Positions 15,771-49,127 of a DNA stretch of 64,000 bases are shown in pieces. Each line of letters starts with the position of its first letter. The stretch's first letter is position 1. Below the pieces are notes generated by a model. That model did not search any database. It was not told the DNA's origin and saw only the letters and a program-made list of their open reading frames with translations. The translations under genes were made by a program, and so were the position numbers. The stretch is from an uncultured Verrucomicrobiae bacterium. Lineage in GTDB: Bacteria > Verrucomicrobiota > Verrucomicrobiia > Chthoniobacterales > JAFAMB01. The stretch is from contig CAWBKA010000025.1 in NCBI GenBank assembly GCA_963789065.1, positions 13,211-77,210 on the forward strand, in the 5' to 3' direction.

Positions 15771-16147
15771 TTGGTGGGACCTGGCGTGTGAGACACTTCA
15801 TGACTGAAGTTCTAAGGGATCTCTAGTTTTTTATTAGTTCCCTAGCTTGTGCGATGGGTTTCGACATTTCCAATCCCGTGGCCTGAAGGGCCAGCGCGAG
15901 CGTCTTCCCGGTGAAGAACCGCTTTCTAAGCGGTTCCTGCTCCGAAGGCCGAGAGGGCTAAAGACTGAGCCCAGGGCTTCGAATGTGTTTAGCGCCGGTC
16001 CTACGACCCGAAGAGCCATGCCCTGTAGGGCTGGGAAATGCGCACGCAATCTGGTTGGCAGCCGATGCTCGCCCTAACTACCTACCTAACTACCAGCCCC
16101 TTCAGGGCTCATCCCATGGGTGGAATAACCCAGGGTAAACCCTGGGC

Positions 16148-16416
16148 TGAATGGCGCTAAGTTAGGGGCTGTTTCGGGTGGGTTTTCTCACCGAAGACGC
16201 CGACAGGGCTAGCGCAGAGTAGCATAGGCTTCCAGCCTGTCTCGAGCCGACCACTTGATATTCGCACGTTCTTCTTCCCGCGATACTTCTGACCGCCCGA
16301 ACATGTCGCTTGGTGCCAACACAAATGACAGGCTGGAAGCCTATGCTACATTGCACAGCCTCTTCGGTCTTCCAGGGGTATGAAGCTCTCATTCCTCCTT
16401 ATCTTAGTGCCATTCA
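16148..16416. mobile_element. MITE-like unit with 21-bp IS4-like terminal IRs, carrying a REP family B doublet and flanked by a 20-bp direct repeat
   Basis: TGAATGGCGCTAAGTTAGGGG ... TCCTTATCTTAGTGCCATTCA; ACCCAGGGTAAACCCTGGGC at 16128-16147 and 16417-16436. Confidence 0.7.
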
Positions 16417-16536
16417 ACCCAGGGTAAACCCTGGGCTATGCTTTCCTGGCCCTTCGGGCCGCAGAATGAAATGGCGAACTACCGGGCCGATTCGGTCCGT
16501 ATGTCCGAAGCGGTCGCCGATAAGCGCTCACTTCGA

Positions 16537-23431: not shown

Positions 23432-23471
23432 CCAGAGCATCTCGCACCCGCCATACGGGCCCGAAGGGGGC

Positions 23472-23703
23472 ATAAGCGCTAAGATAATCTGAGGCACTTC
23501 AAATGGCTTTTGTCCCGGAGGGACAGGCTGATAGTAGCCAGGTACGAAGTGCCTGGGTAGCGATGCAGAGAGGCCCCGTCCCGGAGGGACGGGGCTATTT
23601 TCCTCGTGATTGCAGGCACTTCGTGCCCGGCTACTATCGTGCCGTCCCTCCGGGACGAAAACCATCCGCCCGTCCAAGCGCCTCGCATTATCCTAGCGCT
23701 TAT
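23472..23703. mobile_element. MITE-like unit with 17-bp terminal IRs, carrying REP family C (GTCCCGGAGGGAC) and flanked by CCCGAAGGGG direct repeats
   Basis: ATAAGCGCTAAGATAAT ... ATTATCCTAGCGCTTAT; CCCGAAGGGG at 23460-23469 and 23705-23714. Confidence 0.7.
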
Positions 23704-23941
23704 TCCCGAAGGGGAGGGTCTCGAACATTGATATTTCTTACGCGTTGGATAGGCCAGCCATTTGGTTCCATCGATCGCGGTTTTCTTGGTAGTCCATCCA
23801 CGAATTGATGGGACGGACCGCTGAGATTTTACCTAATTTTTTACAAACGGTAATACAATCCCTACGGCGATGCCATGGATACGGAACCTACAGAGGTAAC
23901 GGCACTGCTGCGACGCCAACGTACGTTCCGCCGCAATTTCA

Positions 23942-46847: not shown

Positions 46848-47066
46848 ATGTCCGTTCCTGACGTTACCAACGCGGTTTTACAGTGGCCCTTTCTGCCGAC
46901 CTTAGGGCGATTAGCACTCGCCTTGGGCACTGGCGCCTTTGTCGGACTGGAACGCGAACACCGCGGCAAAGCTGGCGCCAGAACATTCACCTTCGCCAGC
47001 TTGATCGGTTGCCTGGGCGGACTTCTGGGAAATTCCTACGCGCTATTGGGATTACCCCAGGGATGA
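46848..47066 (+). pseudogene. 5' fragment of an MgtC/SapB (DUF4010-associated) membrane protein gene, cut by the repeat cluster
   Basis: RLALALGTGAFVGLEREHRGKAGARTF. Confidence 0.72.
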
Positions 47067-47740
47067 ATGGCACGAAGATAAGGATGTTCTGGGATGGTTC
47101 TTCGTCCCGAAGTGACAGGAGGATCCAGCCCAGGAGCTCGAAGATAGTGCGAGGCACTCGATGGCGATTGGTTTTGTCCCGGAGGGACAGCACGATAGTA
47201 GACAGGCACGAAGTGCCTGGAATCACGAGGAAAATGGCATCGACCGTCCCTCCGGGACGGAGCCGCTTTAGGTCGATACCCGAGGCACTTCGTGCCTGGC
47301 TGCTATCAGCCTGTCCCTCCGGGACAAAAGCCATTCAGTTCTTAACGTCGCCCAGGGATAAATTCCTGGGCTGAGCTTTGTAGCCCCTGCGGGGCAAAGA
47401 ACGCGGACGCTCAAGAACGAAAGCGAGGACAGCTCACCTTCCTCGGAAAACCGAGACACTCGGCCCAGAATATCCTTATCTTAGTTAGCGCCATTCATCC
47501 CTGGGAACTCCCACGACGCGGTGCGTCCTGAAGGGACGCCAGACGGTGAGCGTGTCGCAGCGACCGAAATTGCCACTGCGATCGACAGCCAAAAAGAAGT
47601 TCGTCCCGCTCCCATTGCCTCTTAAGCCCTTTCAGGGCTCGTTCACAACATTATTTCCCAGGGTTAAAACCCTGGGCTAAGTTTTGTAGCCCCTTCGGGG
47701 CAAAAACCGTCCCAAACCCTCCTTATCTTCGTGCCATTCA
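47064..47740. mobile_element. 677-bp non-coding MITE-like composite with perfect 21-bp terminal IRs and CCCCAGGGA direct repeats; cargo is REP families C and A
   Basis: TGAATGGCACGAAGATAAGGA (47064-47084) and TCCTTATCTTCGTGCCATTCA (47720-47740); CCCCAGGGA at 47055-47063 and 47741-47749. Confidence 0.78.
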
Positions 47741-48081
47741 CCCCAGGGATAACCCCAGGGATTTGTACCTGTTTAGTTGTTTAGTTTAGCGTCGATCATA
47801 CGTCCCGAAGGGCCGTGGGTCTCAACCCTGAAACCGACCTGGCGAGCTAGCTAGTTATAGCTAGCTAGCTAACAACGGGCTAAGAACCCGAGGACGAGCT
47901 CGAGGACGATTGGGGCACGATTGCGAGAAACGAGCGGTCAAGTACCAGCTTTCGTCGAGATCCCTTCCCTCGCCTCTCCAATTCTCCAACAATTGCTTTC
48001 GCACTTTACTCGTACTATTAAGGCCGCTTTTGACCGCATTGTTGCAGGCTTTGTGAACAGGCCACGTCGGCCAGCACGTCC

Positions 48082-49077
48082 CTAACGCGCTTTTGGCGGC
48101 TCTTTTCGTTTTCGCCCTAGCTGCTGGCTGACATTCGCCGCACTTTTCATTCGAAGCCGTTCCGCAATCCAGCCTTGTGATACCGTGGTGTGGCGATGGA
48201 CGGATTCCGCAATCGCTACTTTACGCCGATCGCTGCCCGGTAACTCCTCCAGAGTCTCCTCTCCTAGTTTGTATTTCTTTAAACCTTTTCGGACCAGGTT
48301 TTCCGCTTCTTCCTGCGCGTGATCTCGCCCCATCTGACTCGTCTGATAGTTCCGATTGCGTTTTACCGCCTTGCGATTTGCTCGACTCAGCAACGCTTCT
48401 TTAAATTGTTCTGTTCCCCAGTACCAGCCTCGGGTCAGCGTACTTTGCAGACTTTGATTCCCAGGTTGTTTGGGCACGCCCTCGCCTTCCAATCCCTTCG
48501 CCTCAATCCGGGCCAAATACTCCCGCCGGCCCTTCACCGTATCCTTGATCCCGACGATCCCAAATCCTTCCTCTGTCTTCATCCATTCGGGTCGCTGACC
48601 CGCCGCCACCAGGTAGCCGCTGGCCAAGCTGCTCCATCGGTATTCGCTCAGACTCTGCTCTCCGGTCAGTTTGATCAGTCCGGCCCTGACGGGATTCAGA
48701 TGCACGTAGTCGATCAAGTTACTCAAATACTCGCCGTGCCCAAACTCGACGCCTTCGACCAGTACAGCTTTGTATCGACCTCCGAAGAGATGACCCCACA
48801 ACTGGTGCCGTCGATTAAATCGTCGAGTGTAGGTATTCTGCATCCAACGCATTCCGGCCACCAGATTCCCCTCCGGGGTTTCGATCACCCAATGATAGTG
48901 ATTGTCCATCAGTACCCAGGCATGAATCAGCCACCCGGTCTTCCCGCACGCCTCCCCCAAGGTATCGATCAAGCTATTTCGATCAATCTCATCATGGACA
49001 ATCCGTTCCTCTCGATCCCCTTTCGCCATGACATGGTAAATCGCTCCGGGATACTCAATCCGTAGTTGCCGAGCCAT
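48082..49077 (-). CDS. Second REP-associated tyrosine transposase (RAYT) with C-terminal HTH
   Basis: MARQLRIEYPGAIYHVMAKGD, AWVLMDNHYH, GHLFGGRYKAVLV, YVHLNPVRAGL, YRWSS, VSQGWIAERLRMKSAANVSQ. Confidence 0.92.
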   Translation of the reverse strand: MARQLRIEYPGAIYHVMAKGDREERIVHDEIDRNSLIDTLGEACGKTGWLIHAWVLMDNHYHWVIETPEGNLVAGMRWMQNTYTRRFNRRHQLWGHLFGGRYKAVLVEGVEFGHGEYLSNLIDYVHLNPVRAGLIKLTGEQSLSEYRWSSLASGYLVAAGQRPEWMKTEEGFGIVGIKDTVKGRREYLARIEAKGLEGEGVPKQPGNQSLQSTLTRGWYWGTEQFKEALLSRANRKAVKRNRNYQTSQMGRDHAQEEAENLVRKGLKKYKLGEETLEELPGSDRRKVAIAESVHRHTTVSQGWIAERLRMKSAANVSQQLGRKRKEPPKAR

Positions 49078-49127
49078 CCCTGCTCTTCTCACCTTGAGGT
49101 CGGCTTGTCAAGATTTGTTGACTGACC

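Follow-up and report, generated by a model that had tools for sequence, protein, structure and literature searches.

A probable composite of nested IS4-type MITEs carrying Y1-element hairpins in a verrucomicrobial genome

Introduction

Insertion sequences (ISs) of the IS4 family move by cut-and-paste. Subgroup IS4 is described as having ends of the form -AATR--------WTW, target duplications of 10–13 bp, a YREK motif in the transposase, a strong target preference and lengths of 1400–1650 bp (De Palmenaer et al. 2008, PMC2266710). Two published cases are close to the locus reported here. Nezha is a MITE (a miniature transposable element with inverted repeats) of 130–170 bp that uses the ends of ISNpu3, a full copy of which was found in another species (Delihas 2011, PMC3184786), and ISNpu3 is listed under subgroup IS4 (PMC2266710). 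ISRm22 is an IS4-family IS that inserts into repetitive extragenic palindromes (REPs), and recombination between its copies was given as the cause of its mismatched flanks (Tobes and Pareja 2006, PMC1525189). Here we analyze a 675-bp unit at positions 47065–47739 of a 64,000-nt stretch of DNA (the window) from an uncultured Verrucomicrobiae bacterium. The unit is a gene-less composite, with ends that match those of an IS4-family element on the outside and hairpins of Y1 transposase elements in the interior. We consider it likely that it was assembled by insertion of MITEs into MITEs and that it was moved as a whole by an IS4 transposase acting in trans.

REP-associated tyrosine transposases (RAYTs) are viewed as non-jumping genes that copy REPINs (REP doublets forming hairpins) and that lack terminal inverted repeats (TIRs) or long duplications (Bertels and Rainey, bioRxiv 10.1101/2021.07.10.451892; Nunvar et al. 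2010, PMC2817692). The locus resembles the REPIN-RAYT system in its GTAG-headed hairpins, which occur in inverted pairs both around a Y1 gene and as gene-less doublets, but here the doublets and also whole Y1 elements stand between DDE-type ends, and for two of the three hairpin types the enzymes are IS200-like and not RAYTs. It resembles Nezha in being a MITE on subgroup-IS4 ends whose full copy sits in another species, a likeness of descriptions rather than of TIR sequences; Nezha is shorter, however, and the available text on it describes neither Y1-hairpin cargo nor nesting. ISRm22 differs in being a full IS of subgroup IS4Sa with 6-bp repeats, and the accessible part of that report does not describe MITEs carrying REPs.

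A preliminary description of this DNA did not recognize the scheme as a described one, but insertion of IS4-family elements into REPs (ISRm22) and MITEs of the subgroup (Nezha) had already been published. For IS4 MITEs that carry Y1 elements or REP doublets, we found no description in a literature search that did not extend to ISfinder, most subscription papers (including the originals on Nezha and Chunjie) and bioRxiv supplements. The available text of a MITE review makes no mention of IS4 (PMC10969869), and the accessible sections of PMC6006769 and PMC3733652 do not link subclass 1.2 Y1 elements or TIRtrons to IS4 ends.

Results and discussion

Ends and target duplication of the unit

All positions refer to the window. 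The assembly that contains it (genome G000) is 73% complete; its contigs are labeled C, genomes G (the congeners include G006, G010, G011 and G016) and extracted loci L. Reading of the sequence together with an end consensus gave a unit of 675 bp with 20-bp TIRs and an 11-bp target duplication (Table 1). The perfect 21-bp inverted repeat of the preliminary description is present (47064–47084 and 47720–47740), and so is its 9-bp direct repeat on both sides, but the register was one base off and the true duplication is longer. We shifted the borders because the base preceding GAATGG is variable (44 T, 7 A, 6 C and 6 G over 63 strong ends) and because exact 11-bp duplications adjoin GAATGG elsewhere, in other taxa; the combination of a 21-bp TIR and a 9-bp duplication was rejected on these grounds.

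The end pattern matched 79 times in this genome, versus once in each of two base shuffles. The 11-mer around the unit is the flank of no other of 72 ends and occurs six times genome-wide, three of them at this locus. Unlinked end pairs agreed exactly in their 11-mers in 38 of 2532 cases overall and in 38 of 725 among REP-type flanks, and it is unlikely that the duplication around the unit is derived by chance. The two outer ends are 84% complementary across 56 nt, extending past the TIR; the fold z-score of the unit (−14.5) merely restates these inverted repeats. No transposase-sized open reading frame (ORF) was found within the unit, in agreement with the earlier statement that the cargo holds no credible ORF, the short overlapping ORFs not having been compared with families. 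TIRs in common with a full IS, a flanking duplication and the lack of a transposase ORF are features that the unit shares with MITEs. MITEs are typically shorter than 500 bp and present in many copies; this is true of the sub-units described below, and the 675-bp composite has a single copy.

Table 1 Features of the 675-bp unit, its surroundings and its sister units (positions in the window)
Feature	Position	Strand	Remarks
Target duplication, left copy	47054–47064		11 bp
Left TIR, IS4-subgroup-IS4 type	47065–47084	+	20 bp; same ends on full IS in congeners
IS4 end and REP-A half hairpin	47065–47134	+	End module of congeners' REP-A/Y1-carrying MITEs; 87% to L197 and L193 (70 nt)
Decayed CAT-ended MITE	47135–47335		84% to CAT-ended unit 23471–23704
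Worn CAT-type end of nested MITE	47135–47155		Part of 47135–47335
Inverted pair of GTAG-headed REP-C arms	about 47167–47218 and 47283–47334		Inverted-repeat arms
Truncated inner IS4 end of 350-bp MITE, last 8 bp missing	47338–47350	−	Decayed junction at 5 loci, intact end at 5 loci
Inverted left half of REP-A MITE	47351–47496	−	Hairpins 47351–47370 and 47383–47395; spacer; inner TIR 47474–47496
Right half of REP-A MITE	47497–47739	+	Target REP-A arm 47497–47507, inner hairpins, REP-A end, right IS4 end
Hairpin pair of the REP-A end (Rfam motif Acido-Lenti-1)	47657–47702	+	RF01687, 40.7 bits (gathering 37); only Rfam hit of the window
Right TIR	47720–47739	−	20 bp; perfect match to left TIR
Target duplication, right copy	47740–47750		11 bp
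Third copy of target 11-mer	47752–47762		One base beyond right copy, 12-bp period; possible excision scar
267-bp MITE, same ends as 675-bp unit, REP-B cargo	16149–16415	+	22-bp direct repeat on both sides
234-bp MITE, CAT-type ends (another IS4-family element), REP-C cargo	23471–23704		Same family as nested cargo of 675-bp unit
MgtC-family membrane gene, cut after about codon 67–69	46848–47066	+	72 aa; PF02308 E 6.6e-7, below curated cut-off
Neighboring 336-aa Y1 transposase, TIRtron-like (class 2)	48082–49092	−	PF01797; NF047646 58 bits (cut-off 80)

A cognate transposase in related genomes

The end pattern was present in 19 of 41 genomes searched, and the reversed control gave no match. In three congeners (G016, G006 and G011), 11 pairs of these ends lie 1860–1886 bp apart and bound a full IS, with exact 11-bp duplications at six copies. 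The transposase encoded there has about 488 aa, contains PF01609, scores 230 bits with NF033592 (cut-off 115) and, as read from its translation, carries the YREK motif with the spacing Y-2-R-3-E-6-K. These copies bear out the earlier proposal that the ends are of DDE (IS4-like) type and supply the full IS that had been sought. In addition, a small DUF6788 ORF is convergent with the transposase gene in the full IS (L027–L037; G006, G016), and both frames finish inside or beside the terminal repeats.

The consensus of the 63 ends fits the subgroup-IS4 pattern -AATR--------WTW, and the 11-bp duplication, the YREK motif and the target preference are further likenesses to the published subgroup (PMC2266710); the 675-bp unit itself, unlike subgroup IS4 elements, has no transposase. 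The best plasmid matches of the transposase were Nostoc IS4 transposases (43%), with GAATGGCAC ends. ISAcma16, a name taken from plasmid annotation, is a 1483-bp element with similar ends and an exact 11-bp duplication, and its transposase is 38.6% identical. On account of its length of 1860–1886 bp, with the additional DUF6788 ORF, the congener IS may be called subgroup-IS4-like rather than a typical member of the subgroup. A PDB search with the transposase gave no match under E 0.1.

A strong match to the congener transposase was detected in 6 of 18 congeners. In the genome of the window, a weak match of 54 residues on C15 lies in no long ORF, the NF033592 profile gave seven matches, none of them over the cut-off, and the PF13006 profile gave none. 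None of the 12 DDE_Tnp_1 loci in this genome is bounded by the ends of the unit, with one stray match at two mismatches. An end scan of GTDB returned at least 129 stretches, which belong to Verrucomicrobia, Proteobacteria, cyanobacteria, Acidobacteria, Planctomycetes and further groups. Among the matches listed were 47 short elements, which showed an exact 11-bp duplication in 23 cases, an exact 12-bp duplication in one, a duplication with one mismatch in nine and none in 14.

The inverted repeats could in principle be an inverted duplication of some larger repeat, made by no transposase, an origin that the preliminary description had itself raised and that would suit ends whose complementarity runs past the TIR. 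It is refuted by the full IS copies, in which the same ends bound transposase genes; in many phyla these ends also bound short elements that have 11-bp duplications. We give it practically no weight.

The interior consists of multi-copy parts

The sub-units of the 675-bp unit, 240–350 bp long, are multi-copy in the genome: 10 matches to the 350-bp MITE family and 19 to the 268-bp family span at least 70% of the family length. The left part of the unit (47065–47350) is a member of the 350-bp family. Relative to a full 350-bp copy it has a 55-bp deletion in the spacer of its nested CAT-ended MITE, and its right end lacks the last 8 bp. At L197 and L193 the counterpart of the left-end module stands before an intact Y1 gene, and element positions 106–196 match the flank of a Y1 gene at L190 at 83%.

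In the inverted half of the REP-A MITE that follows, the inner TIR has a 4-bp insertion relative to the end consensus; the 47351–47496 linkage recurs on C19, on C25 (second locus) and on C33. The decayed junction between the 350-bp MITE and this half was seen in the unit and at four other loci, and the outer flanks differ among the five. Six genome matches to the right half, itself included, cover 70% of it or more (73–100%), and this half is also joined to other MITE ends on C1 and C4. Thus the internal end noticed earlier at about 47474–47497 is real, the composite nature read from it stands, and a second, truncated inner end accompanies it.

A comparable composite on C4 (135296–135790) consists of a MITE and the same right half; its inner end has a 1-bp insertion and it is flanked by a 10-bp duplication at a non-REP site. 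Two paralogous sites of this composite hold a single copy of the 10-mer (one identical, one with a mismatch). Four elements of 1765–2023 bp in G007 (L247–L250) combine IS4 ends, a hairpin MITE and the same IS481-like ORF, and exact 11-bp duplications were found at three of the four. At L031, a different IS4-family transposase is bounded by CAT ends and sits in a REP-A loop within a GAATGG MITE. Composites in G013 were also considered as proof of joint movement and were rejected, since their duplications are all common REP-A arms. At L038 (G010:C1), a MITE of about 440 bp has grown to about 2.8 kb through an insert that contains a 614-aa frame, and its 11-bp direct repeat was kept.

Two further units in the window had been grouped with this one as three related TIR pairs with different REP cargo. 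The 267-bp MITE does have the same ends. The 22-bp repeat around it is a whole REP-A palindrome (window 16127–16437); paralogous REP-A doublets without the MITE have one copy of the 22-mer, and other copies like the MITE have one REP-A arm on each side and no duplication. Such a pattern is consistent with recombination between copies that lie in opposite arms. The unit at 23471 was rejected as a member of the same TIR family, as its ends are of CAT type, and its REP-C cargo is the same as that in the 675-bp unit. There are 22 CAT-type ends in the genome, including those on C1, C11, C19 and C21. The CAT-ended MITE family has REP-C as its cargo, its targets are mostly copies of another palindromic repeat, which is GC-rich, and a 33-bp element at C29:26399 is made of two CAT-type ends alone.

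The cargo hairpins are ends of Y1 elements

The hairpin arms occur in inverted pairs, with heads that read GTAG at 47198–47201 and 47686–47689. REP-A flanks a 150-aa Y1 gene on C13 and another Y1 gene at L189, REP-C flanks a Y1 gene at L188 (G010) in inverted orientation, and REP-B is located next to a 207-aa Y1 frame on C1. The REP-A genes score 55.6–58.8 bits with NF033573 (cut-off 55) and 20–23 bits with NF047646 (cut-off 80), and the REP-C gene scores 49.6 bits with NF033573 only (cut-off 55); both have the Y---Q-HH motif of subclass 1.2. Only the gene next to REP-B is class-2-like, and at 61.3 bits it stays below the NF047646 cut-off of 80. The cargo hairpins REP-A and REP-C are therefore ends of Y1-transposase elements, as the label of RAYT-type REPs had implied, but the elements are short and their genes score IS200-like and not as REP-associated transposases.

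Subclass 1.2 of TnpA-Y1 is reported to be generally without typical IS200 end structures and to be mostly cyanobacterial or from Bacteroidetes (Quentin et al. 2018, PMC6006769). The motif is common to that subclass and the REP-A and REP-C genes, whereas the long GTAG-headed hairpin ends seen here are unlike its description. The REP-A end coincides with the Acido-Lenti-1 motif, which has a table entry in PMC2864571 and is still given as 'of unknown function' in a 2026 preprint (10.64898/2026.10.21.760802). Elsewhere in this genome (C24:50336–50608), a Y1 gene lies between long arrays of a tandem repeat of about 31 bp, in inverted orientation.

Whole Y1 elements were also found between IS4 ends. 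L211 (G010) is 758 bp long, has both IS4 ends and an 11-bp duplication, and contains a whole frameshifted REP-A/Y1 element. At L197 and L193 an intact Y1 gene is accompanied by one IS4 end. The 266-bp MITE L044 corresponds to L211 minus the gene, and at L272 CAT ends surround a frameshifted Y1 element similar to that in L211.

The same anatomy would result if Y1 enzymes had put their own elements or hairpin doublets into small, empty IS4 MITEs that already existed, the IS4 ends capturing nothing. Hairpin-free MITEs of 67–232 bp are indeed common: among the matches listed from other lineages, 21 of 46 interiors fold at z ≤ −3 relative to shuffles, with many unrelated hairpin types, and 25 do not. 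A 114-bp element without these hairpins is present in G006, and Y1 elements lack IS4 ends at 10 of 20 loci. However, no empty MITE with halves that match the two end modules of L211 or of the 350-bp family was found in a search that was not exhaustive, and the likeness to the IS end extends over just about 35–40 bp of each end, with the hairpin joined directly. We regard such insertion by Y1 enzymes as unlikely, though not far-fetched; it would change the order of events and not the composite anatomy, and it can coexist with capture of Y1 elements by IS4 ends, which we prefer.

Target sites and the question of a dedicated shuttle

In this genome, 40 of 77 ends adjoin a REP-A-type arm (one mismatch allowed), versus a background of 0.26%, and 52 of the 77 have a central C(A/T)G at the flank. 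The G013 elements are likewise mostly in REP-A-type arms. Among the matches listed from other taxa, REP-A-type flanks were found at 2 of 133 ends and a central C(A/T)G at 84 of 133. The insertion into REP-A-type hairpins claimed earlier is thus a genuine preference in this genome but is rare elsewhere.

A TIRtron-type motif was present at 49 of the 133 flanks from other taxa, versus 0–1 of about 130 shifted controls. A homologue of the Y1 gene that neighbors the unit was within reach of 3 of 129 outward flanks (two loci) among the matches listed, and so these sites are not identified as TIRtron ends by the motif match alone. Of the full IS copies in congeners, 2 of 11 are in REP-A arms and 3 of 11 in TIRtron-type ends like that of the neighboring gene. 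At L176, beside a homologue of this gene, two 137-bp MITE copies stand in tandem with a single target 11-mer between them, which is repeated insertion at one site.

The preliminary description had proposed a two-enzyme scheme for REP mobilization. In its strongest form this would be a dedicated, co-evolved shuttle tied to the neighboring RAYT and the main route of REP spread in the genome. As such a shuttle would have it, one of the three hairpin types lies within 400 nt inward of 64 of the 77 ends, and the terminal repeat of the neighbor is the type of site used by congener IS4 copies. On the other hand, the motif matches that lie within 450 nt inward of an end are 31 of 102 for REP-A, 44 of 119 for REP-B and 33 of 86 for REP-C; about two thirds of the hairpin copies are outside MITE territory, which argues for opportunistic nesting and not for a dedicated shuttle. 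The neighbor is not flanked by the cargo hairpins, whose cognate Y1 genes lie at other loci (C13, C1), REP-C occurs as the cargo of two different IS4-family ends, and REP-A targeting is as rare outside this lineage, and as infrequent among the full IS copies, as given above. The dedicated shuttle is very improbable, and we do not uphold it.

Proposed assembly and its weighing

We propose that IS4 ends came to enclose Y1 elements and that loss of the Y1 gene would then have given rise to hairpin-doublet MITEs. The transposase would favor palindromic 11-mers centered on C(A/T)G; REP-A arms fit this target, and therefore each MITE that carries REP-A would itself become a target. After insertion into a MITE, the inner end would decay and the two outer ends would form a larger unit, and the 675-bp unit would have taken at least three such rounds of insertion. 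Its last move would have needed no Y1 enzyme, the IS4 transposase probably being sufficient. In this genome the IS4 family would by now be orphaned, or nearly so.

Several observations weigh against this account. The complete composite was found once only in the genome. At the 20 Y1-gene loci, both GAATGG ends were present once (with a broken gene), both CAT ends once and a single end eight times; ten loci had none, even though the query carried IS4-type ends. No intact cognate transposase was found in this 73%-complete assembly, an incompleteness because of which its absence from the genome is not shown. The full IS of the congeners (1860–1886 bp) exceeds the length published for subgroup IS4 (PMC2266710), which we attribute to the second, convergent DUF6788 ORF. 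Chance agreement of about 5% among REP-type flanks is not negligible, and of 20 end pairings in this genome five showed an exact duplication, three one mismatch and 12 none, suggesting that flanks were often swapped or decayed. The left flank of the unit is a truncated gene and the right flank is repeat DNA, and the site was therefore rearranged before or after the insertion. Finally, no empty allele of this locus was detected, and no contig in four sequencing runs spans the element.

The single copy, the rate of chance agreement and the truncated gene would also be expected if MITEs and lone ends had simply piled up at a REP-rich hot spot, with 11-mers that reflect chance or recombination and a span that never moved whole. 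Many lone ends exist, and the 22-bp duplication at 16149, together with elements that have inverted flanks, points to flank swapping, as was suggested for ISRm22 (PMC1525189). Nevertheless, the 11-mer of the unit flanks no other end, the outer TIRs are identical over 20 bp whereas both inner ends are damaged, and the analogous C4 composite has its duplication at a non-REP site. We consider a local pile-up quite unlikely and favor movement of the whole composite by IS4 ends.

The elements described here form a traceable series: first the full IS4 element, next IS4 ends that enclose a whole Y1 element, then the gene-less hairpin MITE and finally the multi-layer composite. The series shows how REP-like doublets can be copied without an enzyme of their own and bears on the spread of both REPs and single-copy Y1 genes. 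Its parts are identified (a 488-aa transposase, 20-bp ends and a defined 11-bp target), and the Acido-Lenti-1 Rfam motif is tied to the end of a mobile element. The surprise is limited, because MITEs, nesting and IS4 insertion into REPs are each known. One tentative extension, which we find possible but doubtful, is that a cross-phylum IS4 clade, whose members have a single conserved end sequence, is specialized on Y1 elements, targeting their terminal repeats, wrapping whole elements and thereby copying and spreading Y1 genes and doublets that cannot jump alone. If this were true, TIRtron ends would be targeted broadly and REP-A arms in this lineage, DDE MITEs would be a general route for the birth and dispersal of REP-like families such as Acido-Lenti-1, and repeated excision with end-joining would leave scars with a 12-bp period.

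Empty sites and possible scars

At most 0.22 of the words of the locus were present in fifteen sequencing runs. Two run contigs stop matching at 47049; they have about 11% other letters and may come from other strains or species. When empty sites were reconstructed for 17 elements, spanning matches were obtained for two, both in paralogous repeats, and a genus-wide search for the empty site of the C4 composite returned paralogues of the right flank and no orthologous empty site. Polymorphism between filled and empty sites, looked for as a check of the preliminary description, was thus not found for the locus of the 675-bp unit, which no contig of the four runs spans, and sister elements provided empty paralogous sites.

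A tandem copy of the target 11-mer with a 12-bp period was observed at 2 of 58 ends in this genome (window 47740–47762 and C25:5750) and at 6 of 114 in relatives (L033, L037, L038, L256, L263 and L264), with 1 and 0 in the controls; one further tandem in relatives has a period of 11. The 12-bp-period repeat may have been left as a scar by an excision whose repair, through end-joining, added one base. The polymerase domain of LigD was found in all five genomes checked and Ku in three of the five; Ku was not found in this 73%-complete assembly. LigD-POL is reported to add non-templated nucleotides (PMC8068969).

Neighboring genes

The Y1 gene that neighbors the unit at a distance of about 340 bp shares 84% identity with L205, where TIRtron-type terminal repeats lie on either side. 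In the window, an upstream terminal repeat was found at about 49102–49126 and a downstream repeat was not found; the upstream repeat is the type of site held by IS4 copies in congeners. Its Y---NP motif and its GGGGWSAS-type terminal repeat on the upstream side make the gene similar to TIRtrons as described (Di Nocera et al. 2013, PMC3733652; PMC6006769). No REP-A or REP-C was found flanking it. The RAYT reported near the unit is therefore a Y1 gene of TIRtron-like type, and it was rejected as the partner of the cargo hairpins.

On the other side, the frame of the MgtC-family gene stops at the left border of the element. Intact proteins of its relatives have about 445 aa, and in congeners the gene is intact and in other contexts; residues 1–69 only are present here, the remainder not having been found in the assembly. 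The truncated gene directly follows a molybdate ABC transporter operon. Another multi-copy repeat, with about a dozen matches in the genome, is located at 47869–47960, between the element and the Y1 gene.

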